Positions 4,286 through 45,980 of a DNA stretch of 64,000 nucleotides are shown one piece after another (positions within the stretch are counted from its first letter, which is position 1; each line of letters begins with the position of its first letter). Made by a program: the position numbers and the translations under genes. Origin of the DNA: Blastocatellia bacterium (GTDB taxonomy: Bacteria; Acidobacteriota; Blastocatellia; UBA7656); assembly GCA_045807725.1 (NCBI GenBank), contig JBJMGV010000126.1, forward strand, positions 28,802 to 92,801, written 5' to 3'. The notes beneath the pieces are model-generated. The model was not told where the DNA came from and made no database searches. It saw only the letters and a list, made by a program, of their open reading frames with translations.

Positions 4286-5534
<1,249 letters not shown>

Positions 5535-5637
5535 CCCCTCGCACCGTCATCGAACGTGGTTCATTAACAGGTGATGTTAGCACACGCGCCGAAGCGCTGG
5601 ACAGAAAAAGATGCGCCGCGTCATCATCACAGATGTA

Positions 5638-7143
5638 ATGAAACGAATGATAGCTTTTCTTTTATTGACAGTGGCGACTCTTTTATCTGAGCGGACGATG
5701 GCCGGCATCCCGCAGCACGAACATCACGACACGCAACCGCCCGCCGCTCAGCCGCAGACGAAGCCGGCTGACAAGCCGCCCGCCGACTCACACACGCCTG
5801 CGATGCCGTCGCCGAAAGACCAGCACGCCGGCCACGACATTAGTAATCAACATGACATGGAGCATCAGCACGCCGGCATGGCCAGCGACGGGATGATGAG
5901 CACCGTCACCGGCGGGCCTTTCCGGGCGATGAGCGCGATTGGTTCCGGCACAAGTTTGATGCCGGCGTCTGCGCCCGGTTATATGTGGCACTGGATGAAA
6001 GGCGATTGGGTGCTGATGCTGCACGGCAACTTGACCATCGGCTTCAATCATCAAGGCGGCCCGCGCGGCGTCAATAAAGCCGAGTCGCAAAACTGGCTGA
6101 TGCTGATGGCCGAGCGCCCCGCCGGCGGCGGTCAGTTGATGCTGCGCGGTATGTTCTCTGCCGAACCCTGGACCGCTCCGCGTCGCGGCTTTCCTGAGTT
6201 GTTGCAGACCGGCGAAACCTACAAGGGCCGCCCGATCATTGACGCGCAACATCCGCACGATCTGTTTATGGAACTGGCGGCGCAATACACGCTGCCCTTG
6301 TCAGAACATGTCTCGATCAATCTTTATGGCGGCCCGGTCGGCGAGCCGGCGCTCGGCCCCGTCGCGTTTATGCACAGGCCATCGGCGATGGAGAATCCGG
6401 CGGCGGTGCTCGGCCATCACTGGCAGGACTCGACACACATCACGCACGGCGTGTTCACCGCCGGGCTGACGGCGTGGAAGCTTCGCATTGAAGGGTCAAT
6501 CTTTCGCGGCGCGGAGCCAGACGAGAATCGCAAGGACATCGAGATGGGCAAGCTCGACTCGTACAGCGGGCGCGTCTGGTTCACGCCGACGCCGAACTGG
6601 ACGATGCAGCTATCGCACGGTCGCCTGACCAATCCTGAATTGCTCGCGCCCGGCGATCTGGTTCGCACCACTGCCTCGATCCATCACAACAAAACGTGGG
6701 CCGACGGCAACTGGGCGACGAGCCTGATCTGGGGCCGCAACCACGAAACGCATGGCAACTCGAACGCTTACACGTTCGAGTCAACCGTGAACTTCAAAGA
6801 TAAGAACTACCTCTACACGCGGCTTGAGCTTGGCGATAAGAACGGCCTGTTGCAAGAGAACATCTGGGGGCGGCCCGGACTTGAAGACGCGCACGACCAT
6901 CCAGAGGTCGTTCACGTTGCCGATGCTGACCCGCACGATGAATTAGCTGATCGCTGGTTCCGCGTCGGCGCGATGACGTTCGGCGGCGTGCGCGACATCA
7001 TTGCTGACTCAAGGTTGCGTGTCGGCATCGGCGTGGACGTGAGCTTCTATCACGTGCCCGATGGCTTGAAAGCGGTTTACGGTTCGCAGCCCATCGGCTT
7101 TCGCTTCTTCCTGCGCTTGAGGCCGGGCAAGATGCAACATTGA
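5638..7143 (+). CDS. Secreted His/Met-rich protein, possibly a CopB-like outer-membrane metal-resistance protein
   Basis: Signal peptide MKRMIAFLLLTVATLLSERTMA, then HEHHDT...HAGHDISNQHDMEHQHAGMASDGMM, then an ~400-aa region with alternating beta-strand patterns. Confidence 0.55.
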   Translation: MKRMIAFLLLTVATLLSERTMAGIPQHEHHDTQPPAAQPQTKPADKPPADSHTPAMPSPKDQHAGHDISNQHDMEHQHAGMASDGMMSTVTGGPFRAMSAIGSGTSLMPASAPGYMWHWMKGDWVLMLHGNLTIGFNHQGGPRGVNKAESQNWLMLMAERPAGGGQLMLRGMFSAEPWTAPRRGFPELLQTGETYKGRPIIDAQHPHDLFMELAAQYTLPLSEHVSINLYGGPVGEPALGPVAFMHRPSAMENPAAVLGHHWQDSTHITHGVFTAGLTAWKLRIEGSIFRGAEPDENRKDIEMGKLDSYSGRVWFTPTPNWTMQLSHGRLTNPELLAPGDLVRTTASIHHNKTWADGNWATSLIWGRNHETHGNSNAYTFESTVNFKDKNYLYTRLELGDKNGLLQENIWGRPGLEDAHDHPEVVHVADADPHDELADRWFRVGAMTFGGVRDIIADSRLRVGIGVDVSFYHVPDGLKAVYGSQPIGFRFFLRLRPGKMQH

Positions 7144-7273
7144 GCGCGTGAGGTGGCCATCATTTTTTTGAGGGCGGGTGTAACCTTTGCGGCGGGCGCG
7201 GTGTCTGAGTAAGTAGAGGCGGATTGGAGCCTCCGAAAGGATCAACACTTATTCGAGCAGTGGAGAGGTAACA

Positions 7274-7786
7274 ATGAAGCAATTGAGTAGAATTAAAAAG
7301 ATGGCCATCGCGGGCGCGATGGCTTGCGCGCTGGCTGTGCCGGTCGTGATGGCGCAGACCGACGACGGCGCGAAGGGCGGGCGTCACGGCCACTTCGGCC
7401 AGCGTGGCGAGCATGGTGATCGCGGCGGCTTTGGGATGATGGGCTTTCGTCAGCTCGACTTGACTGACGCGCAGAAAGCGCAGCTCAAGCAGATTCACGA
7501 GAACCACCGCCAGGCTCTTGCGCCGGTGATGGAGCAGATTCGCGCCAAGCGACAGGAGATGCGCGCGGCCAGCGAAAGCGGCACGGTCAACGAAGCCGTG
7601 ATCGCGCAGAAGCTCACCGAGATCGCGCCGCTTGAGGCCAAGGTGGTTGCCGAGCGTGCGCGTGTGCGCCAGGAATCACTCGCCGTGCTGACGGCGGAAC
7701 AGAAGGCCAAGCTCGATCAGATGCGCGAGCAGGCGAAGACTCGCTGGGCCGAGCGTCGCGCTAACAAGCAACAGAAAAATCAGTAA
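7274..7786 (+). CDS. Periplasmic LTXXQ-motif protein (Spy/CpxP/ZraP family)
   Basis: Signal peptide; LTDAQKAQL and LTAEQKAKL motifs; coiled-coil basic protein. Confidence 0.7.
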   Translation: MKQLSRIKKMAIAGAMACALAVPVVMAQTDDGAKGGRHGHFGQRGEHGDRGGFGMMGFRQLDLTDAQKAQLKQIHENHRQALAPVMEQIRAKRQEMRAASESGTVNEAVIAQKLTEIAPLEAKVVAERARVRQESLAVLTAEQKAKLDQMREQAKTRWAERRANKQQKNQ

Positions 7787-7848
7787 CTCTCGTGGGCAAG
7801 CCCGTCATCGGATGGGCTTGCCGCTTTTCAAATCATTGAACAGGAGCA

Positions 7849-8466
7849 TTGCTGACAATCGAGATCGAACAGGTTTCGGAGGAGGAGTTGGTGAGGCTGG
7901 CGCGGGCTGGAAGCGAGCCGGCCTTTGAGGAGATCGTGCGTCGCCACAGCCCGCGCGTCTTTCAGATTGCCAGCCGTTATTTTCGTCAGCGTGAGCTGGT
8001 CGAAGAAGCCGCTCAGGAGGCTTTTCTTAAAGCCTACACGCAGCTTTCAACCTACGAAGGGCGCGGCTCGTTTGAAGGCTGGCTGACACGATTGACGACG
8101 AACCTCTGTTTGAACCTGCTGCGCAGCGCCAGGCGGCGACCCGAAGCCACTGTAGCCGACATCACAGACGACGAAGGCGAATGGCTGGACAATCAATTAT
8201 CCGATCTTTCCGCCGTGCGCCACCAGGCGAGCGAGCGCGGGTTGGTCGCGGCTGACCTCGCCGAGAAAGTTCTCAGTGAGATGTCTGCCGACGACCGGCT
8301 GGTGTTGATGTCGCTCGATGGCGACGACCTTTCGGTCAAAGAAGTCTCGGAGATGACCGGCTGGAGCGAGGCCAAAATAAAAACGCAAGCCTCGCGCGCG
8401 CGCCGGCGAATGCGCCAGGCCGTCGAAGCCTTGCTCAGTCACCGATGGCGCGGGCGTTCTTCATAA
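7849..8466 (+). CDS. ECF (sigma-70 family) RNA polymerase sigma factor
   Basis: ...EELVRLARAGSEPAFEEIVRRHSPRVF... region 2 and a region 4 HTH; TTG start in the track, true start uncertain. Confidence 0.85.
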   Translation: MLTIEIEQVSEEELVRLARAGSEPAFEEIVRRHSPRVFQIASRYFRQRELVEEAAQEAFLKAYTQLSTYEGRGSFEGWLTRLTTNLCLNLLRSARRRPEATVADITDDEGEWLDNQLSDLSAVRHQASERGLVAADLAEKVLSEMSADDRLVLMSLDGDDLSVKEVSEMTGWSEAKIKTQASRARRRMRQAVEALLSHRWRGRSS

Positions 8467-8514
8467 CGAAAAAATAAAGCGCAAGCCGAGAGCCTGCGCT
8501 TTACTGGTGAACTC

Positions 8515-9006
8515 ATGCGAGACCAGCACATCACAAGCTTGCTTGAAGAGGAGCCACTCAGCCGTTTGAGCGACGACGAGCGCGCGATGATCGAAGCGCA
8601 CGTCGCGGCTTGCAGCGAATGTTCGCAGTCGTACCGCGCGGCGCGGCTCGCCGAATCATTGATCGTTGCGCGCGCGGCTGAGACGCAGACCGTCTCGCCT
8701 TTCTTCAAGACGCGAGTGATGGCGGCCATACGCGACCGGCAATTGTCGCCGGAGCCGGCAGCGTGGTTAAGAATCTGGCGGGCCGCCGGCAGTCTGCTCG
8801 TAATGATGACGATGCTGGTCATCGTGCTGGTCGGCGTGAGCGTCTTCAACTCGGCGACGACTGCGCTGCCGTCGCCTGACATTGCCATCAATCAAAGTAT
8901 CTATTCGACTGATGAAGTGATCTTCGGCCCGGACGACGCGGGCGAAGAGACTTACGATCAGGTGTTCGGAACAATCTACGGCTCAGAGGACGGCGATGGA
9001 AACTAG
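8515..9006 (+). CDS. Anti-sigma factor (zinc-finger ZAS-like, single TM)
   Basis: HVAACSECSQ motif, a TM helix LLVMMTMLVIVLVGV, immediately downstream of the ECF sigma gene. Confidence 0.7.
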   Translation: MRDQHITSLLEEEPLSRLSDDERAMIEAHVAACSECSQSYRAARLAESLIVARAAETQTVSPFFKTRVMAAIRDRQLSPEPAAWLRIWRAAGSLLVMMTMLVIVLVGVSVFNSATTALPSPDIAINQSIYSTDEVIFGPDDAGEETYDQVFGTIYGSEDGDGN

Positions 9007-9394
9007 CCTCAAAAACAAATGGCAGATTCGCCTGGCGGTGTTGCTCATCTTCATCATCGGCTTTGTCGCCGGCGCGCTGACCGTGAACGTCTACCGCGCA
9101 CGCCATATGGCCTCTGCGCCGGAGGAGCGGCGCGGCAGGTTCGAGCGCGTGATGGAGCAGTTGAACCTGACCGCCGAGCAGCGCGAGCAGGTGAAAGCCA
9201 TTTTCAACGAGGCCCGCGCGCAACTCAGTGAGATGCGCAAAGAGTCGAGGCCGCGATTCCGCGCGATGCGCGAACAGACTCACGAGCGTTTGCGCAACGT
9301 GCTCACGCCCGAACAGTGGGAACAGTTTCAAAAACTCACTGCCGATTTCAAAGAGCATCGTTCCCGCCGAGCCAACCGCAACGACGAGCCATAA
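8996..9394 (+). CDS. Periplasmic LTXXQ-motif protein (Spy/CpxP-like), second copy
   Basis: TM anchor, then LTAEQREQV and LTPEQWEQF motifs; overlaps the anti-sigma stop, so same operon. Confidence 0.7.
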   Translation: METSLKNKWQIRLAVLLIFIIGFVAGALTVNVYRARHMASAPEERRGRFERVMEQLNLTAEQREQVKAIFNEARAQLSEMRKESRPRFRAMREQTHERLRNVLTPEQWEQFQKLTADFKEHRSRRANRNDEP

Positions 9395-9704
9395 GATTCC
9401 GCCAGCGCTCACACCGTCCGCTCTTATGCACTGCCATGTGCGGTGACTCACCTAGCTGCTTGTTATAGATGCGCGAGCCGCCGCGCTGCTGCTTACGAAA
9501 GGAGTAGATGCCAGAGCCACAGACCCTAACTGCATTCATCACCCTGCGTTCATCACTCATCATTCCTCTGACGACATGCGTGCGGCCCGTGTGCTAGATT
9601 ATTCGCGGCCAGCAACGAGCAATGGGATTGCCCACTCAAGCGACGATCTCCGGCCATCATTTTGATTGTGGCGAAGAATACAAAGAGCGCGGGACGTTGA
9701 AGCT

Positions 9705-16320: not shown

Positions 16321-16378
16321 CAATTAGGTGAGATTAAGGGCGATGAAACTCAGCAACAAGCTAATGGAGGATTCGACT

Positions 16379-18031
16379 ATGAATAGAATAAGAGAGACGA
16401 TAGCGCTGGCGCTCGTCTGCGCGCTGCTCGGTTTAACAACCGTAGCGCAAACGCAGACGCGAGATTGGCAGCGCTCAGACCGTTATGATAATCGGCAGGC
16501 CGGACAGCTCGTCGCGCGCATCGATCAGCGCGCCGCTCGTTTCCAGACGACTGTTGAACGCGCCGTCCGGCAGAGCCGCATGGACAACACCCGCCGCGAA
16601 GACAAAATCACGCAGTTTGTCACGGATTTCCGCGAATCTATCACGCAATTGCGCGCCAGCGTCAATCGCAACCAGGCGAGCAACGCCGATGTGCAGATGG
16701 TGCTTGATCGCGCCGCTCGCATTGACGCGTTCCTGCAAGCGCATCAAGGGCTGACCGGCGTTGACAGCGATTGGCAGATGTTGCGCACCGACCTGGATAG
16801 CCTCGCCGGCGCTTATAACATTGCCTGGAGTTGGAGCGATTATGATCAGCGCTACGGCGAGCAGTGGGGCCGTGAAGGCGGCTGGTATAACCGGGACAAT
16901 AACGTGAATGGGCGCGGCGGCAACTGGAATCGAGGCAACTCGGCGGCGGCTCGTTTGTCGGGCACATTCCAACTAAACGCCTCGCAGAGCGACGACGCGC
17001 GTTCGATAGTCGAACGTGCGGTACGTACGCTTCCGAACAATGACCGCCAGCGCGTTTCCGATGCGCTGATGCGGCGCGTTGACGCTCCCGAAATGCTTTC
17101 GATAGACCGGCAGGGACGCACCGTGATGCTGGCTTCGTCGCGCGTCCCGCAATTGACGTTTGAAGCCGACGGGCAGGAACACACCGAAACCTACCCAAAC
17201 AGCAACCGCACCTCGCGCGTCGTAGCGACGCTCACCGGCGACCAGTTGACGATCAACTCGACGGGCGACCGCGCTACGGATTTCAGCGTCACCTTCGACC
17301 CGATCAACAACGGTCGGCAACTGCGCGTGACGCGCCGCCTCTATAGCGAGCGCCTGAACCAGCCCATCGTCGTGCAGAGCACCTACGATCAGGTCTCGCC
17401 GACGGCGCGTTGGGACATCACGACGGGATCGCCTGCTTATGGCGGTAATCGCTATCCGAATGATCGTGGTGGAAACTACGATTCAAACGACTATATGGTA
17501 GCCGACAGCGCGTTGATCGTCGCGCGGCTCAACGATAGCCTCGACACCACCCGCACGCGCGCCGGCGACCGCTTCAGCTTAACGGTCGTGTCGCCGCCGG
17601 AATACCGCGACGCGACGATTGAAGGTCACATCATCGATACCAACCGTTCGGGCCGCGTGACGGGCCGCGCCGAGCTGGCGATGGCCTTCGATTCGATCCG
17701 TATGCAGAATGGGCGCACGGCCCGCTTTGACGGCACGCTCGACAGCGTCCGCACCGCGAACGGCGAAACGCTGCGCGTTGACACTGAAGGCACGGTCAGA
17801 GACGACAGCAGCCAGACCAACAAGACCGTGACGCGTGCGGCGATTGGCACGGCGGTCGGCGCGCTGATCGGCGCGATTGCGGGTGGCGGCAAAGGCGCTG
17901 CTGTCGGCGCAGTAGTCGGCGGCGGAGCCGGGGCCGGCTCGGTCTTCGTTCAGGGCCGCAACGATCTTCAGTTGACGCCCGGAACCGAAATTACCATCCG
18001 CGCATCTGCCCCCAACCGTCGAGCGATGTGA
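16379..18031 (+). CDS. Secreted hypothetical protein with C-terminal glycine-zipper segment
   Basis: Signal peptide MNRIRETIALALVCALLGLTTVAQTQ; Asn/Arg/Gly-rich; C-terminus AIGTAVGALIGAIAGGGKGAAVGAVVGGGAGAG. Confidence 0.6.
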   Translation: MNRIRETIALALVCALLGLTTVAQTQTRDWQRSDRYDNRQAGQLVARIDQRAARFQTTVERAVRQSRMDNTRREDKITQFVTDFRESITQLRASVNRNQASNADVQMVLDRAARIDAFLQAHQGLTGVDSDWQMLRTDLDSLAGAYNIAWSWSDYDQRYGEQWGREGGWYNRDNNVNGRGGNWNRGNSAAARLSGTFQLNASQSDDARSIVERAVRTLPNNDRQRVSDALMRRVDAPEMLSIDRQGRTVMLASSRVPQLTFEADGQEHTETYPNSNRTSRVVATLTGDQLTINSTGDRATDFSVTFDPINNGRQLRVTRRLYSERLNQPIVVQSTYDQVSPTARWDITTGSPAYGGNRYPNDRGGNYDSNDYMVADSALIVARLNDSLDTTRTRAGDRFSLTVVSPPEYRDATIEGHIIDTNRSGRVTGRAELAMAFDSIRMQNGRTARFDGTLDSVRTANGETLRVDTEGTVRDDSSQTNKTVTRAAIGTAVGALIGAIAGGGKGAAVGAVVGGGAGAGSVFVQGRNDLQLTPGTEITIRASAPNRRAM

Positions 18032-26357: not shown

Positions 26358-28634
26358 CTACTTGATTGCATTGGCCGCTCCTCTTTGAAATGTCAGCACG
26401 TAGACGCCGCTTGAAAAGCTGCCGGCGTAAACGCGGTCGCGTTCAAACGGGTCGAACGACAGCGTCCAGACGCGCGTGGTCGGCAGCTCCGCGCCGCCGA
26501 TGGCGTCGAGCCGCTCCCACGAATAGCCTTTGTCGGTCGAGCGGTAGACGCCGCCCTTCGAGTATTCGGCGACCAGCACTTCGTCGGGGTTGGCCGGGTT
26601 GAAGACGACCGACGTGAAGTCGCCCGCCGGCAATCCACCGCCGCGCCGCACCCACGTGCGCCCGCCGTTGGTCGAGCGAAAGAGGTTCTGGTTAGTGCCC
26701 AGCAGAATCGTCGCCGGATCATTGGGCGCTTGCGCGACCGACTTCACCGACATATCACTGGGGCCGCGATCAATGTGCGCCCAGGTCGCGCCGCCGTCTT
26801 CAGAAATGTAGAGGCCCGCCTTTGTGCCGACCAGTATGCGCTTCGGCGTGTCCTTATGCGTCGAGACCGAATAGACGCGCCCATTCGCGTCGTAGCCGAC
26901 GAGGTAGACTTTCTCCCAGCCTTTGCTTTCATCAAAGGTGCGGTAAAGCCCGTCCATCGTCGCCGCCAGCAGCCCGCGCCGGCCTTCGCTGTCGCTGAAG
27001 CTGGTGATGTCGTCCACCTGCTTCGTCAATTCAAACAGCGACGGGCCGAGCGGTTCTGTAGGCTCGACTACTTTAGGCTTCTTCGGCGCGCGCGATGATT
27101 TCGATGACTTCTTTGACCCGCGCGACTTCTGTGCAACCATCACGACCGGCACGGCGCGGTATTGGCCGACGCCTTGCAAAGCGGGCGCGGCAGGCGCGTC
27201 GTTAGCGGCGCGGCGACGGCGCGTCGGCTTCTTCACCGGCTTCTCGGGCTTCGTCGTTTGATTGCCGACGAATGACCAGCTTGCGCCTCGGTCGCTTGAG
27301 CGGAAGACACCGGTGTTCGTGCCCGCATAGATCACGCTCGGGTTGTCGGGCATTTGATAAAAGGCGAACACGTCGCGTGCGCCTAAGCCGCGTGACGACG
27401 ATTGCCACGATTCGCCGCCGTCGCCGGAAACAAAGATGCTGCCGGCGGAGCCATCGTGAAAGACGCTGGCGAGCAAACGCCCGCGCTCCTGCGCGTCGGG
27501 CAGTATCGCCAGAATGTGCCGATGAATGAAGCCGATGTTGGCTTCGGCGAAATCGTCGCCGAGGTTGTTGGATTCGAGCACGCCGTAATCATCCGTAGCA
27601 ATCAGCACGCGCTGTGGCTTGTCGGGCGTGACGATGACCGAACGAATGACGTGGCTCTTCGAGGTAATGAGCATCCAGCGCTTGCCGCCGTCTTTGCTGC
27701 GCCACAGTCCTTCGCTCGTGCCGGCGAAGATGATGTTCGGATTGGTCGGGTGCGGCAACAGGTAATAGGTGCGCCGCGCCGTGAAAGGGATGCCCGGTAT
27801 CTTGTTCCAGTGCTCGCCACCCGTATTCGAGCGATAGATGCCGCTGCACGCGTTCAGATAAACAAGGTCGGGATTGGTCGGATCAACCGAGACGCCGAAG
27901 ATGTCGGAATCATCAATGACGCCGTTGCCCTTATAGCCGGTCTGCTTCCAGGTGACGCCGCCGTCTGTGGTCTTCCAGGGCAGGTGCCACGTGCCGACGT
28001 AAATCTGATTAGGATCGCGCGGGTGTATGGCGATGGACTCGATGTTGTGAATCTCTTTGTCGCCTTCGGGCGAGATGCGCTGCCACGTCTTGCCGGCGTC
28101 GGTCGAGCGCCAGGTTCCGTTCAGCTTCGGGTCGTCGTTGGCGCTGCCGGCCATCACGATGTTGGAATCTGACGGCGCGATAGCCAAGCTACGGACGGAT
28201 AACTTCTTCGTCCCGTCGAGCAGCTTCCAGTGCTCGCCGCCGTCTTCGCTCTTAAAGACGCCGCCGTCCACATCGCGCGCCACCGCCCACGCGCCGACAT
28301 AAAGCGTGCGGCTGTCGTGCGGGTCGATGGCAATGCTGTCTATCGAGAGGCCGCGCTCGCCTATCCCCGGCTTCACCCTGCGCCAAGTACGCGCGCCATC
28401 GGTCGAGCGAAAGAGCTGGCCGTCGCTCGTGCCGAGATAGAGCAGGTTGCTATTGTCGGGCGCAGCCACCAGCGTGCGCACGTCGCCGCCCCACGGGCCG
28501 GTAACTTCCCACTGACGAATCTCTTTCTCGTTTGTAGTGGTAGTTACGTCGTGCGGGCCGTCGGCTCTGGCGGGCACGAGCGACACTGCGAGCGCAAAGA
28601 CTAACGCGAGGAGGGGGAGGTTTCGGATTCTCAT
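26358..28634 (-). CDS. Secreted BNR/Asp-box repeat protein (sortilin/Ycf48-like beta-propeller) with Lys-rich insert
   Basis: Signal peptide; repeated S-x-D-x-G-x-T-W motifs (STDGARTW, SEDGGEHW, STDAGKTW, TTDGGVTW, SKDGGKRW, STNGGRTW...). Confidence 0.8.
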   Translation of the reverse strand: MRIRNLPLLALVFALAVSLVPARADGPHDVTTTTNEKEIRQWEVTGPWGGDVRTLVAAPDNSNLLYLGTSDGQLFRSTDGARTWRRVKPGIGERGLSIDSIAIDPHDSRTLYVGAWAVARDVDGGVFKSEDGGEHWKLLDGTKKLSVRSLAIAPSDSNIVMAGSANDDPKLNGTWRSTDAGKTWQRISPEGDKEIHNIESIAIHPRDPNQIYVGTWHLPWKTTDGGVTWKQTGYKGNGVIDDSDIFGVSVDPTNPDLVYLNACSGIYRSNTGGEHWNKIPGIPFTARRTYYLLPHPTNPNIIFAGTSEGLWRSKDGGKRWMLITSKSHVIRSVIVTPDKPQRVLIATDDYGVLESNNLGDDFAEANIGFIHRHILAILPDAQERGRLLASVFHDGSAGSIFVSGDGGESWQSSSRGLGARDVFAFYQMPDNPSVIYAGTNTGVFRSSDRGASWSFVGNQTTKPEKPVKKPTRRRRAANDAPAAPALQGVGQYRAVPVVMVAQKSRGSKKSSKSSRAPKKPKVVEPTEPLGPSLFELTKQVDDITSFSDSEGRRGLLAATMDGLYRTFDESKGWEKVYLVGYDANGRVYSVSTHKDTPKRILVGTKAGLYISEDGGATWAHIDRGPSDMSVKSVAQAPNDPATILLGTNQNLFRSTNGGRTWVRRGGGLPAGDFTSVVFNPANPDEVLVAEYSKGGVYRSTDKGYSWERLDAIGGAELPTTRVWTLSFDPFERDRVYAGSFSSGVYVLTFQRGAANAIK

Positions 28635-28929
28635 TGACTACTGCGACTCCTTACATTGGGAATCTTAGCACACGGGCCGCAAGCGCCCGAAGCTAGATTC
28701 ATGATCGGCCTTTCGATTGAGGATGAACTATACAATGGCGGGCCGACGAGCGGAAGGCGGAAAGGCGCAATGTCGAAAAGTTGCAAGACAAGCGCGCGTT
28801 TCGAGCCGCAAAACTGAACCGGGAATGCGTTAATGCGCGGCTGACGCGCGCGGTCAATCGCGCCCCGGCGCGGTCGCCGCGACATCACGCCGCGACATCA
28901 AGTTGCTGTGGCTTCCGGCCTGCCACCGC

Positions 28930-30501
28930 TTATGGCGCTTTCGCCTTGGGCGTCGTCGCCGGCGGCTTCGCGGGCGTAGTCGCGGGAGCCTTGGCGGGCG
29001 CGGACTTGGGCGCGGCGGGCTTCGGTATGATGAACGGAAACAGCAGGAGAGCAGGCGGAGGAAAGTCCACCGTGAAGGGCACGTCGCCCGAAATGCCGGT
29101 CGCTTCCCACGACGACATGGGAACCGTCGCTATCTGTTCCTTACCGCTGCCACAGTTGCCCGGACACAAGTCCACTGTATCTTTAACCGTATAACTGATG
29201 TCGGGCATGACGACGAGTTGTGTGCCGGTGTCGAAGATCGTAACTGACCCCTTGGCGATGCGCGCGTCGTCCTGCGGCGAAGGAGTCGCGCCGACGGGAT
29301 TGGCGGCTTGATCCTTGCCGATGCCGCCGGCAATGTTGCCGGGTATCTCGCCGATCACGTTGAAGTTCATTTGATTCGCCCCTGTCCAATCATCTATGGC
29401 TTTGATCTCAGACGGAATGAGCGTGGTGATGTCGAGCTTTAAGAAGCCAGTTGCGGCAGGAACCGTCGGCGGGCTGGCAGTGAGCTTTGCCTTTAGCGCG
29501 TTCAAGAGAAAATCGGTCGTAGCGGCTGTGGTCTTCGACGCGGTAAAGTCAGCGCCGAAGGTCTTCGAGAGGTCTTGTATAGAGCTGCTGCCGCCGAAGG
29601 CCCACGTGCTCCAGAGTGGGAGCACCCGTGAGCTTACGGCGATGCCAATGCCCAACATAATTATCGGCCACATATCTTTGCGCATATCCATCGCCATTCC
29701 AGTTGATAGCAGCGGGGTACAAAAATCCGGGCCGCAGCTCGCTGAAGCGCCCTTCCAGCTTTTTGCGTTCGGGGCGTCGCGTTCCACGGCGGCCATCGGA
29801 ACGTCCTCCTGGCGCTGAAGGTGTTGCGGGGCGCTGCCGCCGCCTTGCTGAACGACGTGCGCCAGCTCGTGCGAAAGCAACTGCCGCCCGCCGGCGCTCG
29901 CCGGCTGATACTTGTCGGCGGCGAAGACAATGTTGCGGCCATAAGTGTAGGCATGCGCATTCAGCTCTTTGGCCGAGCGCGACGCGTCGGCGTCGGCGTG
30001 AATGCGGACCTGGCTGAAATCCTGTCCAAAGCGCGGCTCCATAAAATTGCGGGTGGCGGCGTCCAGAGGTTGACCGGATGAATGCAATACGGAAGAGGCG
30101 AGGGAGGGCAGGCCGGTGGGTTCCTGTCCGCCGGCCTCGACTCGCTGAATCGGCAAAGGCTTGTGCTCCTGACCGGACGGCGGCGTCTGACAGGTCGGGC
30201 AATCGCTGCCGCAGGCACAAGCGCGCTGCACTTGCGGCTCAGGCAAGCGCATCACGCGCTCAGCGATATGGTCGGCCTCGCGCTCGTAACGGTCGCCCGG
30301 CGTGCTTATGGCCAGCTTCGCCTGAATGCCTGTCGATGAGATGGGATTCACTGGGACGCGGCTGAACTCGTGATCGAAGCGCGCGGCTTCAGGACTAGCG
30401 TATCCCTGCGCGTCCTCACGTCGAGATAGCAGGGGACGCGGCGCAGGTTCAAGCAACATCTTCGGTTGAAGCGGACTCGATTTCTGAGCGTAGCTTCTCA
30501 T
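28930..30501 (-). CDS. DUF4157 (zincin-like HExxH) domain protein with an uncharacterised ~250-aa C-terminal region and a Pro/Ala/Lys tail
   Basis: ...ATRNFMEPRFGQDFSQVRIHADADASRSAKELNAHAYTYGRNIVFAADKYQPASAGGRQLLSHELAHVVQQ matches the DUF4157 signature; ATG at 30501 with a GGAGGG RBS. Confidence 0.75.
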   Translation of the reverse strand: MRSYAQKSSPLQPKMLLEPAPRPLLSRREDAQGYASPEAARFDHEFSRVPVNPISSTGIQAKLAISTPGDRYEREADHIAERVMRLPEPQVQRACACGSDCPTCQTPPSGQEHKPLPIQRVEAGGQEPTGLPSLASSVLHSSGQPLDAATRNFMEPRFGQDFSQVRIHADADASRSAKELNAHAYTYGRNIVFAADKYQPASAGGRQLLSHELAHVVQQGGGSAPQHLQRQEDVPMAAVERDAPNAKSWKGASASCGPDFCTPLLSTGMAMDMRKDMWPIIMLGIGIAVSSRVLPLWSTWAFGGSSSIQDLSKTFGADFTASKTTAATTDFLLNALKAKLTASPPTVPAATGFLKLDITTLIPSEIKAIDDWTGANQMNFNVIGEIPGNIAGGIGKDQAANPVGATPSPQDDARIAKGSVTIFDTGTQLVVMPDISYTVKDTVDLCPGNCGSGKEQIATVPMSSWEATGISGDVPFTVDFPPPALLLFPFIIPKPAAPKSAPAKAPATTPAKPPATTPKAKAP

Positions 30502-30841
30502 AAGCCCTTCCCTCCTGCTGTCACGTTTCGGACGGCTAACGCCAACGATCTCTTGCCGGATTATACACTCTTGCTTTTCATTTGTGGCAAAAATGATGAT
30601 GCAATGTAGATATAGCCATACGGCGTCGTCTGGGCGGCGCATTCATCAACGCCGCCTCGGCAAGCAAGCGTCGTTGTACGCCGGCGGAGCAGAGCCGGCG
30701 CGGGCGGCATCCTTGACTTATCTTGTATCGCTCGTGAAGAATAAGTCGGAACGAGAAGGCACGAAAGCGTTATTCATTGCGCCGGTCACGCTTCTCGGCT
30801 CTTCAGTCGTTGATGAATTGCTTTTTGAATGATTCACGTGT

Positions 30842-30915
30842 GCGCCCGTAGCTCAGTCGGATAGAGCATCGGTCTTCTAAACCGAGGGTCGCAGGTTCGA
30901 GTCCTGCCGGGCGTA
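30842..30915 (+). tRNA. tRNA-Arg (anticodon TCT)
   Basis: GCGCCCGTAGCTCAGTCGGATAGAGCATCGGTCTTCTAAACCGAGGGTCGCAGGTTCGAGTCCTGCCGGGCGTA; cloverleaf with a 7-bp acceptor stem, a TPsiC-loop TTCGAGT and an anticodon loop CTTCTAA. Confidence 0.85.
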
Positions 30916-30965
30916 TCTTTAACTTTCGCTACTTGTTCGCTTCCTATCGTCCCGCGTAGTCGAAC

Positions 30966-31133
30966 ATGGATGTTTCCGGTTACGACCTTCTCGCCGCCCT
31001 GGCCATCGCGTTTCCGGCGTTGTTGCTCGTGCTCGCGCTGTTCGAGCCGGGCCTGCCCTACAAAATCAACTCGGCGCAATCGCTGCCGCGCTCATCGCAA
31101 CCAGGGGATTCAACCCCGGCCTTTTGCACCTGA
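30966..31133 (+). CDS. Possible 55-aa small membrane protein or gene remnant downstream of the tRNA
   Basis: MDVSGYDLLAALAIAFPALLLVLALFEPGLPYKINSAQ...; one TM helix; below the ORF-track length cutoff. Confidence 0.25.
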   Translation: MDVSGYDLLAALAIAFPALLLVLALFEPGLPYKINSAQSLPRSSQPGDSTPAFCT

Positions 31134-31177
31134 CATCTACACTGAATCCTGTATCCTGAATCCTGTATCCTGTCTTT

Positions 31178-31906
31178 ATGCGGTTACGAGTCGTCACCTA
31201 CAACATTCATAAGTGTCGAGGGATGGATAGGCGCGTGCAGCCCCGGCGCATCATTGACGTGCTCGGCGAATTGAACGCCGACATCATCGCCTTGCAGGAA
31301 GTGCTCTCGATCCCCGATGGCAAGCCCGAAGACGATCAAGCCCGCTTCATCGCCGAGCAGCTCAAGCTGTCGCACACGGTCGGCGGCACGCGCCGGCTGC
31401 GCGGCGGTATTTATGGCAACGTCGTGCTGAGCCGCTGGCCCATTACCGCAACGCAGAATTATGACATCAGCGTGCGCGGGCGCGAGCAGCGCGGCTGCCT
31501 GCGCGCCGATGTTGAAGTCATCCAGGGCAGTCCGCTGCACGTCTTCAACGTCCACCTCGGCACGGCCTACCTTGAACGGCGTCATCAAGGGCGGCGCTTG
31601 ATTGACGAAGCCATCCTCAACAACCGCGAATTGAACGGACCGCGCTTGATGCTGGGCGATTTCAACGAGTGGACGCGCGGGCTGGCCTCACGGCTGCTGG
31701 CCTCGCACTTGGTCAGCGCGGACGTGCGATTGCACCTGCCGCGCCGGCGCACCTATCCCGGCGTCTTGCCGCTACTGCATCTCGATCACATCTACTATGA
31801 GGATTCGTTAGAGCTGGAAGCGTTGACGCTCTATCGCACACGGCTGTCGCTGATGGCTTCGGATCACCTGCCGCTGGTCGCCGACTTTCAGGTGCGGTTA
31901 GATTGA
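31178..31906 (+). CDS. Endonuclease/exonuclease/phosphatase (EEP) family protein
   Basis: ...VVTYNIH...DIIALQEV...GDFNE...SDHLPLVADF. Confidence 0.8.
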   Translation: MRLRVVTYNIHKCRGMDRRVQPRRIIDVLGELNADIIALQEVLSIPDGKPEDDQARFIAEQLKLSHTVGGTRRLRGGIYGNVVLSRWPITATQNYDISVRGREQRGCLRADVEVIQGSPLHVFNVHLGTAYLERRHQGRRLIDEAILNNRELNGPRLMLGDFNEWTRGLASRLLASHLVSADVRLHLPRRRTYPGVLPLLHLDHIYYEDSLELEALTLYRTRLSLMASDHLPLVADFQVRLD

Positions 31907-39249: not shown

Positions 39250-39627
39250 TCACCGCTCGCCTTCGACCTGCTTGATCTCGACGCGCTCGCGTTTAATGTC
39301 GAGCCGCAACCTGCCATAGAGACTCATATACTGATTGGCGATCCACACCAGCGCGAAGCCGCCGATCAGGTAGCCGCGCCAATCCTCGTAGAGCAATGTG
39401 TAGCGCGTGATGATGAGAAAGAAAGCCGTCACATAATGGCTGAAACAGTACTCGCAGGTGAACAGGTAAAAAAATTTTCGCTCGATCAGTCGCCGGCATC
39501 TCTCGCTCCGCTTGACGCAGTACTCGCGCGGCTCGCGAAAGACTTCTTCGTGCGTCACCGTCCACGCGATGCAGGCGATGGGCACGGCCAGAATGAACAG
39601 CCAGGCGATCTGCAAACCTAAAGGCAT
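39250..39627 (-). CDS. Hypothetical small membrane protein with Cys-rich segment
   Basis: TM helices at both ends; YCVKRSERC...FTCEYCFSH. Confidence 0.45.
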   Translation of the reverse strand: MPLGLQIAWLFILAVPIACIAWTVTHEEVFREPREYCVKRSERCRRLIERKFFYLFTCEYCFSHYVTAFFLIITRYTLLYEDWRGYLIGGFALVWIANQYMSLYGRLRLDIKRERVEIKQVEGER

Positions 39628-39841
39628 CCGTTCTCCGCTTGGTTATGACTGAGCGTCCAGTGAGTAAGGCTAAACTACCTGCGCGGCAAGGGCGCGTCAA
39701 GCGCGCGGCTGATGTTGTTGGCCGACATAGCCGGCGGCTGGCGCTCGAATTACTATTGTCGGCCCGTCGCCGCCGGCTTATGATAGAGCGCATCTTCGCA
39801 CTGCCTCCCACAACATTCCTTTCAATCAAGGACGAAAGCAG

Positions 39842-40279
39842 ATGAGCGCACGACTGACGCGACGAGTGGTGATAATGATAATAGTAAGCTCGCTCACATT
39901 GAGCCTGACGGCCTGCGACGGCTCGAAGACGACGGTGATCGAGCAAGCGCCGCAGGTGACGGCGGCCAATGAGATCGCGGCGATGGCGCGGCTGTCGGCC
40001 ATTGGCCGCGCCGAGGTGGCTTACCAGACAGAAACGGGCGGCCAGTATGCAACGCTTGACGAACTGGTCGAGCGCCGCATGGTCAACGACCCGGCGCAGG
40101 GCAAGCTGACCGGCTACAAGTTCGAGATTAAAATCACCGCGCACGGGTTTGAAGCGACGGCGACGCCCGAACGTTATGGCATCAGCGGCAAGCGGTCGTT
40201 CTACGTTGACGAGCAGAACGCGATGCGCGGCGCGGATCGCAATGGCGCGGCGGCGACGGCGTCAGACCCGCAAGTCTAG
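39842..40279 (+). CDS. Lipoprotein with pseudopilin-like domain
   Basis: Lipobox LSLTAC; ...AIGRAEVAYQTETGGQYATLDELV... resembles type IV pilin/pseudopilin globular domains. Confidence 0.55.
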   Translation: MSARLTRRVVIMIIVSSLTLSLTACDGSKTTVIEQAPQVTAANEIAAMARLSAIGRAEVAYQTETGGQYATLDELVERRMVNDPAQGKLTGYKFEIKITAHGFEATATPERYGISGKRSFYVDEQNAMRGADRNGAAATASDPQV

Positions 40280-44765: not shown

Positions 44766-45980
44766 TTACCGATCCGCGTCCTGCGGGATGAGCTTGTAGG
44801 CGGTTCCCTTGAATTTGAAGATGACGCGGGCGTCGTGAGAGAACCCTTTAAGGAACGGCTCGATCTTCGCGTCTCTGGCCAGCAGGCTGTGATAGACATC
44901 GCTGTCACGAATGATCGTCACCGGCTTGTCTTTATCAGGATTGAAATCTTTATCGGTCCACACGTCGCCGCGCAGCAAGAAGAGATGATTGCCGATTCGG
45001 CGCGACACCGAGGGCGTCGCCGCAGCGGCTTCAGAAGTCGAGCGGAACGGTTGCATGCCGGAGACGCTGGCCGACGGTTCGTCACGGTGGTCGCGCCCTG
45101 CTTCAGCGACACGGCTTGGCGGTGGTGGTGGCGGCGCGATGTTGCCGGCTACATCACTGTCAGCGCGCTTGGCGCGGCTCGCAGTAGCCGTCGCGTCCTT
45201 CGTTTCCTGCTTCTCTTTGGTCTGATCCTTCGCCACTTCGCTGGCCTGCGGCTGCGCCGTTTCAGAGGCGGGCGCGGCGCTGGGCTGGGCTGGAGCCTCG
45301 GTCTTCGCAGTAGTCTGGTCGGCGGGCTTCGGCTCAGGAGTCTGTGCGAGAGCCGGCGCGCCGCCGCTTACGCCATCCGCGACCGAAGTTGATTGAGATT
45401 GCGCTTCTTTCTTGTCGTCGGTCGCAGGCTTCTCACTCGTCCCTGTGCTACCTTGTGCCTTCGCCTCGTGGCTGTTGTTTGTGGTCGCCGCTTCACCGGG
45501 CGCGTTCGCCGGGGTCATTGCTCTTGCGGTCAGATCACCTGACGGCGGGCCGGATTCGGTAGCTCCGGCAGTTGGGTTATTCGGCGTCGCGCGGTGCGAC
45601 AAAATCAACGGCAAGGTGACGGCGAGCACAACCAAAGCGGCGGCGGCCATCGCCCACTGCGGCACGGTCAGCGCGCCGAGCCATTGCCGAATCGGAGAAG
45701 CGCCGCGCGCTTGCCCGACTACGGCGACGCCGTGCGCTCTCACCTGATCGGCTTGCGCCATTCGTGTTAAAGCGACGATGGTTTTGCGGCAGGGTGAGCA
45801 CGCGGCGAGGTGATTCTCGTAGCTCGCCTGCTCGCTCTCCTTCAGGCTGCGCTCGACATAGGCGTTGGCCAGATCGGCGTCGAATTCCCGACAAAGCGGC
45901 AGCTCTTTGCCCGCCGCGCTGCCTTGCGCGCGCAGCAGTCTGTCGATTGTGTCATCCTGCGTTTTCGGGAACATCTTCAT
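44766..45980 (-). CDS. Anti-sigma factor (ZAS-type Zn motif, TM, long Ala/Pro/Thr-rich periplasmic region)
   Basis: HLAACSPC motif; TM WAMAAAALVVLAVTLPLIL; directly downstream of the sigma gene. Confidence 0.65.
   Translation of the reverse strand: MKMFPKTQDDTIDRLLRAQGSAAGKELPLCREFDADLANAYVERSLKESEQASYENHLAACSPCRKTIVALTRMAQADQVRAHGVAVVGQARGASPIRQWLGALTVPQWAMAAAALVVLAVTLPLILSHRATPNNPTAGATESGPPSGDLTARAMTPANAPGEAATTNNSHEAKAQGSTGTSEKPATDDKKEAQSQSTSVADGVSGGAPALAQTPEPKPADQTTAKTEAPAQPSAAPASETAQPQASEVAKDQTKEKQETKDATATASRAKRADSDVAGNIAPPPPPPSRVAEAGRDHRDEPSASVSGMQPFRSTSEAAAATPSVSRRIGNHLFLLRGDVWTDKDFNPDKDKPVTIIRDSDVYHSLLARDAKIEPFLKGFSHDARVIFKFKGTAYKLIPQDADR

Follow-up and report, generated by a model that had tools for sequence, protein, structure and literature searches.

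In a stretch of 64,000 nucleotides of contig JBJMGV010000126.1 from a Blastocatellia bacterium (the whole stretch is referred to below as the window), a complete minus-strand gene encodes a protein of 523 residues that is very probably a DUF4157 effector-type protein. Slightly on balance, we favor the view that this gene is an orphan polymorphic effector of the type carried by extracellular contractile injection systems (eCIS), the C-terminal domain (CTD) of which would be an envelope-directed toxin module. It is common, and expected, for DUF4157 proteins to have C-terminal domains without annotation, and the part worth keeping is the CTD family, since the "unknown" C-terminal half of the protein is, judging from its homologues, a conserved and mobile domain family that bears no Pfam or NCBIfam name. 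The features of the gene are as follows, in positions of the window.

28930..30501, minus strand: complete gene of the DUF4157-CTD effector-like protein, 523 aa plus stop, from open reading frame (ORF) and translation.
30112..30501, minus strand: aa 1-130 (N-terminal region), predicted to be disordered for the most part; it includes a helix (aa 71-85) and a CxCx3Cx2C motif.
29836..30069, minus strand: DUF4157 / PF13699 (eCIS_core) zincin-like domain, aa 145-222.
29857..29871, minus strand: HExxH zinc-binding motif, HELAH, aa 211-215, intact.
29023..29751, minus strand: CTD, aa 251-493 (about 245 aa), of an unnamed family, with a predicted fold resembling DUF3289 / colicin M.
29149..29181, minus strand: DTVDLCPGNCG, aa 441-451, an invariant loop that connects the long beta-hairpin to the next helix.
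28933..29022, minus strand: Pro/Ala/Lys-rich tail, aa 494-523, from composition and low predicted local distance difference test (pLDDT) values.

The ATG at 30501 is the likely coding start, with AGGAGGGAAGGG found just upstream. The minus-strand frame ending at 28930 stays open to 30642, and the ATG at that position was rejected as a start, its extra 47 aa falling outside homologue coverage; the start was placed at 30501 because homologues align only downstream of it. One of these homologues, P0027, encoded in an eCIS operon of Hufsiella/Pedobacter, aligns with aa 59-495 at 47% identity (E 1e-127). A sequence-only reading of this DNA had proposed a DUF4157 signature, and the profile search bears it out: PF13699 is matched at E 6.6e-33 with 113 bits (cut-off 22) over model positions 1-78 of 79, and the domain displays both the HExxH motif and a zincin-like fold. 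The Pro/Ala/Lys-rich tail named in that reading is likewise present (33% Ala, 30% Pro and 20% Lys), with similar tails in the homologues P0004, P0100 and P0096, and the polymorphic, eCIS-associated effector architecture that it put forward is supported, the CTD being unannotated. In the full-length model the DUF4157 domain and the CTD are both confident and are joined by a short linker of low confidence. In the N-terminal region pLDDT, here taken as a proxy for disorder, falls below 50 at aa 1-61, 91-95, 111-114 and 121-127 and is low overall at aa 91-130; the single helix reads ...DRYEREADHIAERVM, and the CxCx3Cx2C motif is also found in P0027. Based on the model, this region is a candidate loading or packaging signal. 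Neither a hydrophobic signal peptide at the N-terminus nor a transmembrane anchor was detected in the protein, the sole hydrophobic stretch being an internal helix of the CTD (aa 278-298). No second copy of DUF4157 or of the CTD occurs in the six-frame translation of the window. An exact look-up of the protein in public assemblies returned no record, and in a metagenome scan the best match to the locus reached 74%, with no near-identical locus.

The C-terminal ~270 aa matched nothing in Pfam (E<=10), NCBIfam (E<=1), PADLOC or PHROGs. A query with aa ~229-491 matched 176 proteins at 45-73% identity, and a CTD profile search of 1.84 billion cluster representatives recovered 574 clusters (50% identity) at E<=1e-3, with 199 at E<=1e-30. 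Named carriers are Hufsiella/Pedobacter (Bacteroidota), Mycolicibacterium iranicum (Actinomycetota) and a metagenome-assembled genome of Bryobacteraceae (Acidobacteriota), the remaining members being for the most part metagenomic. Where the sequence-only reading saw no recognisable motifs in this half of the protein, about 28 positions are in fact invariant across 100 homologues, with the elements W, GG, FGxDF, SxTT, MNF, PGNxAGG, PSPxxDxR, DTxDLCPGxCG, E, AT, S, EA and GDVP, and four cysteines are conserved as C-x4-C plus C-x3-C (the first pair being C256 and C261). All the invariant family residues, together with HExxH, are retained in the window protein, and the DTVDLCPGNCG loop is, from its conservation, a candidate active or metal-binding site. 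A Cys-His protease reading of the CTD was dropped because the domain has no invariant His. A defence-system or phage reading was also rejected, there being no PADLOC or PHROGs match and no relative in 2.9 million viral contigs.

Among 91 representatives of the CTD family, the partner is DUF4157 in 75 (by Pfam match; HExxH is retained in 74 of the 91, and one more reads HQLAH), SH3_3 in 11, OmpA in nine, PG_binding_1 in two, and LysM and YkuD in one each. All partners other than DUF4157 bind or modify peptidoglycan and therefore, by domain association, the target of the CTD would be placed in the cell envelope. An envelope-targeting toxin is accordingly the function that we prefer for the domain by a little. 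The same fusions, to OmpA, SH3_3, LysM, PG_binding_1 and YkuD, could also belong to housekeeping wall metabolism, in which case the protein would be an endogenous factor for cell-wall remodelling or maintenance, with the DUF4157 zincin and the CTD acting on the cell's own envelope. Such a role is compatible with the housekeeping neighbours of the gene, with the absence of injection-system and immunity genes nearby and with the occurrence of DUF4157 outside eCIS loci, as in mycobacterial Rv2189c beside ripC (PMC12067865). Nevertheless, we regard it as quite improbable: the protein lacks the signal peptide or transmembrane anchor needed for reaching the envelope, the gene is missing at this locus in 19 close relatives, the N-terminus is disordered like that of eCIS cargo, and homologues cluster with eCIS genes and with DUF4157 proteins bearing nuclease, VanY, PT-TG and Het-C domains of toxin type.

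The neighbourhoods of these homologues point to an eCIS-type effector. P0027 directly follows genes for CIS_TMP (tape measure) and an AAA ATPase and is succeeded by three further DUF4157 genes (locus L076), and around P0047 (locus L006) BTAD, AAA/WHD, DUF4157, Pvc16_N and sheath genes are found at 4-9 kb. P0004 and P0100 adjoin DUF6519, other very large genes and a second DUF4157 gene; P0012 belongs to a DUF4157 array whose genes end in nuclease (an ankyrin gene comes next), PT-TG and VanY domains; and P0001, the closest relative (73%), adjoins a DUF4157-M14/VanY gene. From a set of 80 metagenomic loci, 44 extend over at least 5 kb, and 18 of these hold another DUF4157 gene. A census of 24 metagenomic loci, over their 71 largest flanking ORFs, gave eCIS_core (20), AAA (9), WHD (5), CIS_TMP (2), Baseplate_J (2), DUF6519 (2) and Pvc16_N (1) domains, and immediately downstream of CTD genes one family alone recurs, that of a further DUF4157 protein (14 of 63 loci). 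The two traits expected of a polymorphic toxin are both seen: DUF4157 occurs with swapped C-termini (VanY/M14, Endonuclea_NS_2, PT-TG, Het-C, LysM) in related or adjoining proteins, and the same CTD is carried on DUF4157, SH3_3, OmpA, LysM, PG_binding_1 and YkuD. The window protein thus combines a disordered N-terminus, DUF4157 and a distinct CTD with homologues located in eCIS operons.

Arrays at L003 (138..2519), L076 (11378..21371) and the P0012 locus hold more DUF4157 proteins beside the CTD homologues. Their C-terminal modules comprise VanY plus Peptidase_M14, LysM, PG_binding_1, Endonuclea_NS_2 (followed by an ankyrin gene), PT-TG and Het-C, and several of the long array proteins contain large stretches devoid of any Pfam match. 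At the metagenomic loci L080 (1006..1659) and L122, the gene downstream of the CTD gene begins with MSSFPSSPKVLKGAIVGIDPLNPLASIAVFQYNPDSVTRSL, a start that we take to be like the N-terminus of a tube-type protein of contractile injection systems, so that an eCIS operon may presumably start there.

The CTD was modelled from a 100-sequence alignment with a mean pLDDT of 93.1 and a predicted template modelling score of 0.86. A second, full-length model based on another alignment reproduced the order of fold matches (8.2, 5.9, 5.6, 5.2, 4.4), and Foldseek, too, put 9jdi_A (the DUF3289 CTD of BtpeA) at the top, as a weak match (E 0.069, probability 0.51). The CTD profile found only chance matches among PDB sequences (E>=0.15), 9jdi not being matched, and a phmmer search with the DUF4157 domain of the window protein found nothing in the same sequences. 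The modelled resemblance of the CTD to DUF3289/colicin M is best described as reproducible but grey-zone. Colicin M-type enzymes cleave lipid II, in dependence on a DxYD(x5)HR motif and a divalent cation (PMC5821083, PMC8469651), and DUF3289 is reportedly a periplasm-toxic colicin M homologue for which DUF943 is the immunity protein (PMC11148199). We hypothesize, with considerable reserve, that the CTD works like DUF3289/colicin M, with colicin-M-like chemistry, a hypothesis that stops short of family membership. More doubtful still is the broader proposal that the CTD is an unnamed, widely distributed lineage within the colicin M / DUF3289 superfamily, ranging over Acidobacteriota, Bacteroidota, Actinomycetota and many soil metagenomes, with an active site rebuilt around DTxDLCPGxCG, PSPxxDxR and four Cys, and that it would constitute the first eCIS payload to destroy a lipid-linked cell-wall precursor, without a dedicated immunity protein.

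Under the orphan-effector explanation, the protein would be made in the cytoplasm, because it has no signal peptide, and its disordered N-terminus would load it into an injection particle, the genes for which would lie elsewhere in the genome; the particle in turn would deliver it to a rival bacterium. There the CTD would be the toxic module, acting on the rival's cell envelope. The most specific guess is that of a metal-dependent hydrolase of the lipid-linked cell-wall precursor, similar to lipid II-cleaving colicin M or to DUF3289 effectors in the periplasm, with an active site that might be formed by the invariant acidic residues D412, D441, D444, E455, E466 and D473 plus R414. Producer cells would perhaps need no immunity protein, because the toxin would stay in their cytoplasm.

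Several results weigh against this explanation. No eCIS or type VI secretion system (T6SS) domains (sheath, tube, baseplate, Pvc16, Pvc15 AAA, tape-measure) were found in about 34 large ORFs of the window, as the sequence-only reading had anticipated for eCIS, T6SS and immunity genes; no eCIS operon lies within about ten genes of the gene, and 88% of known eCIS toxins are encoded at most ten genes from the operon (PMC11297309). DUF4157 is not needed for loading in AlgoCIS, where its function is unclear (bioRxiv 10.64898/2026.05.27.728243). As for the enzymatic proposal, PF14859 and PF11692 are not matched by the CTD even at E<=10, and hhalign gives a probability of 0.1-0.2% against a colicin M profile, for the whole domain and for the C-terminal halves, this profile being thin, with homologues that are mostly near-identical or frameshifted colicin M fragments. 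The CTD reads DT(V/I)DLCPG(N/D)CG and lacks DxYD(x5)HR: by eye, both Asp of the colicin M (ColM) motif are kept, Tyr is replaced by Val/Ile and His-Arg by Cys-Gly. Finally, nothing credible as an immunity-like gene was found downstream of the DUF4157 gene in the window, nor is any such gene conserved downstream of CTD genes across the 63 loci.

An injected effector directed against eukaryotes (protists, fungi, invertebrates), with a CTD that acts on a eukaryotic membrane or lipid-linked target, would explain the lack of a conserved immunity gene in the CTD family, and characterised eCIS do mostly target eukaryotes, several eCIS toxins killing yeast (PMC8213781, PMC11297309). The recurrence of the CTD with peptidoglycan-binding and -modifying domains, the VanY and LysM domains in neighbouring DUF4157 genes and the fact that the nearest folds are periplasm-acting antibacterial toxins argue otherwise, and we consider a eukaryotic target unlikely.

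The surroundings of the gene bear on how it reached this position and on whether it is still in use. The relevant features are:

28815..30840, strand not assigned: variable 2.03-kb segment holding this gene alone, from DNA alignments with L007, L008 and L009.
26358..28634, minus strand: BNR/Sortilin gene.
30841..30917, plus strand: tRNA-Arg(TCT), from ARAGORN and Rfam (RF00005, 73 bits), conserved in L008.
30966..31133, plus strand: remnant of a cardiolipin-synthase/PLD-like gene, with about the first 40 codons homologous (to ~31085).

The gene does lie between the BNR-propeller gene and tRNA-Arg(TCT), as described from the sequence alone. The BNR protein, which places the source organism among the Blastocatellia, retrieves 19 syntenic Blastocatellia loci (62-86% identity) in which the sucC-BNR pair is kept, and in none of the 19 is a DUF4157 or CTD homologue found within 10 kb. 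The variable segment extends from the BNR upstream region common to the closest relatives to the exact 5' end of the tRNA. Only L008, with a BNR protein 84% identical, keeps the order histidine kinase, EEP, 426-aa cardiolipin-synthase/PLD-like gene and tRNA-Arg(TCT), and its slot between tRNA and BNR is occupied by an unrelated insert of 4.9 kb (4904..9700). About 3.8 kb of that insert (4904..8730) is low in GC (0.41-0.51 vs 0.60) and encodes DnaJ-domain, PIN-domain and hydrolase-like proteins, from genes with a GC of 0.41-0.47, and a xylose-isomerase-like TIM-barrel gene follows. The DUF4157-CTD gene is accessory and the tRNA-BNR slot is a hotspot for foreign DNA, because the gene is absent in relatives, the edges of the segment are mapped and the L008 insert is different.

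Horizontal acquisition at the tRNA, as originally suggested, stands as regards an accessory gene in a variable slot and is not supported as regards insertion at the tRNA itself. A classical tRNA island was rejected: apart from 12-nt chance matches, neither a direct repeat derived from the tRNA nor an integrase was detected, and integration usually takes place on the 3' side of a tRNA, whereas this gene lies on the 5' side. Two signs of acquisition invoked in that reading, the upstream region and the gene remnant, are not upheld. The AT-richer DNA upstream is nothing more than ordinary intergenic sequence (GC 0.53 vs 0.60). The proposed check of GC and codon usage returned a native GC content (0.616 vs 0.614 +/- 0.020 for 23 window genes, z 0.1) and codon usage deviating only mildly from that of the same genes (GC3 z -1.7; synonymous-codon log-likelihood z -1.65). 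The gene remnant past the tRNA is real and matches, in DNA and in protein, the start of the intact 426-aa cardiolipin-synthase/PLD-like gene of L008 (3507..4787), which begins MDVSGYDVLATIAIAFLALMLVLALFEPGLPYKIN; it records, however, a deletion on the other side of the tRNA. About 1.2 kb is missing after ~31085, positions 31086..31177 are some 90 nt of junction filler that contains a 14-nt tandem repeat, CTGAATCCTGTATC x2 (31142..31169), just ahead of the EEP gene, and homology returns at the EEP start codon. As read from this alignment, the 1.2-kb deletion beyond the tRNA is a separate event and not a scar of the arrival of the DUF4157 gene.

An insert consisting of one gene, located in a variable slot with partner genes absent and with decay nearby in the form of the deleted cardiolipin-synthase-like gene, could also be a stranded, unused copy of cargo, transferred without its delivery machine and intact by chance or by recent arrival. 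This we hold to be rather improbable, given that the ORF stays open over its 523 codons behind a good ribosome-binding site, that all invariant family residues and HExxH are retained, and that GC is native-like, which disfavors a very recent arrival.

Within the variable segment, a perfect 13-nt tandem duplication, CGCCGCGACATCA x2, is located at 28875..28900, 30 nt past the stop codon of the DUF4157 gene and ~60-85 nt from the BNR-side edge at 28815. The tRNA genes of the window and of L008 (4827..4903) are identical except for the anticodon arm, in which the stems read TCGGTC...ACCGAG and CTTGCC...GCAAGG, respectively, several paired positions being changed with pairing kept. An Rfam scan found only the tRNA. 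A conserved RNA element upstream of the BNR gene was considered and rejected, since the conservation is confined to the closest relatives plus a TATA-like box and the ribosome-binding site. The neighbouring genes are ordinary chromosomal ones, including sucC, the BNR/Sortilin propeller, an EEP-family nuclease/phosphatase, a histidine kinase, a MacB-type ABC exporter, tsf, rpsB, aroA, proS and others. A 567-aa ORF (16328..18031) matches Pfam only in a C-terminal YMGG-like Gly-zipper, and the ORFs at 5611..7143 (510 aa), 39293..40144 and 44766..45980 matched nothing in Pfam at E<=1e-4.

The presence of DUF4157 strongly marks eCIS toxins (PMC8213781, PMC11297309), and 983 of 1,130 predicted DUF4157 eCIS toxins have no annotated toxin domain (Danov et al., PMC11297309). 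With the gene described here, a domain of this kind comes into view that is conserved, confidently modelled and accompanied by a testable guess at its function, and the locus provides a cargo gene a long way from injection-system operons, in a slot occupied by other foreign DNA in a close relative. If the guess of an envelope or lipid II-type hydrolase were true, a payload targeting the cell-wall precursor would be added to the eCIS repertoire, and the colicin M/DUF3289 fold would be extended to three more phyla, which would be of interest for antibacterial enzymes and engineered injection particles. No paper that ties eCIS cargo to a colicin M-like domain was found in the literature searched.

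Compared with known eCIS cargo, the window protein resembles Cgo1 and Cgo2 of AlgoCIS and the eCIS-associated toxins (EATs) of Geller 2021 and Danov 2024 in its disordered N-terminus, its DUF4157 domain with HExxH and its variable, folded C-terminal domain. Cgo1 and Cgo2 fill the tube lumen, and their disordered N-terminus is needed for loading (PMC8894135; bioRxiv 10.64898/2026.05.27.728243). Homologues of the window protein are likewise located at the 3' end of eCIS operons, past the AAA ATPase, and an immunity gene is absent for many EATs too (PMC8213781). In contrast to such cargo, the window gene is flanked by ~29 kb and ~33 kb of DNA free of eCIS genes; the CTD of Cgo1 carries a second HExxH, and the CTD of the window protein is also unlike all EAT domains tested.

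The second set chosen for comparison is colicin M (PF14859: colicin M, PaeM, syringacin M and pectocins, which are lipid II phosphodiesterases). By eye, the CTD shares with it the succession of helix, strand, helix, strand, long beta-hairpin, acidic loop, helix and two strands, and the invariant D-x-x-D loop past the hairpin falls at the place of D226-x-Y-D229 in ColM; a cell-wall theme is also common to both, for the CTD by way of its domain fusions. On the other hand, the CTD exceeds colicin M in size by ~100 aa and carries four conserved Cys, and the window protein is devoid of the TonB-box, receptor-binding domains and immunity gene of the colicins. Among T6SS effectors, the DUF3289 (PF11692) proteins considered were the CTD of BtpeA (PDB 9jdi) and T6EC1 with its DUF943 immunity protein. 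These are C-terminal, periplasm-toxic modules of a contractile injection system and in that respect are like the proposed effector, but they share only ~8-12% identity with the CTD, which their Pfam family does not match, they are delivered by T6SS and not by eCIS, and they possess a cognate immunity protein, none being conserved beside CTD genes. Two DUF4157-like T6SS effectors, the C-terminal metallopeptidase of VgrG2b and Tpe1, have in common with the window protein an HExxH zincin, which in those proteins is itself periplasm-toxic (PMC6899460); there the zincin is the C-terminal toxin and is followed by a downstream immunity gene, whereas here it is a central module accompanied by a conserved domain.

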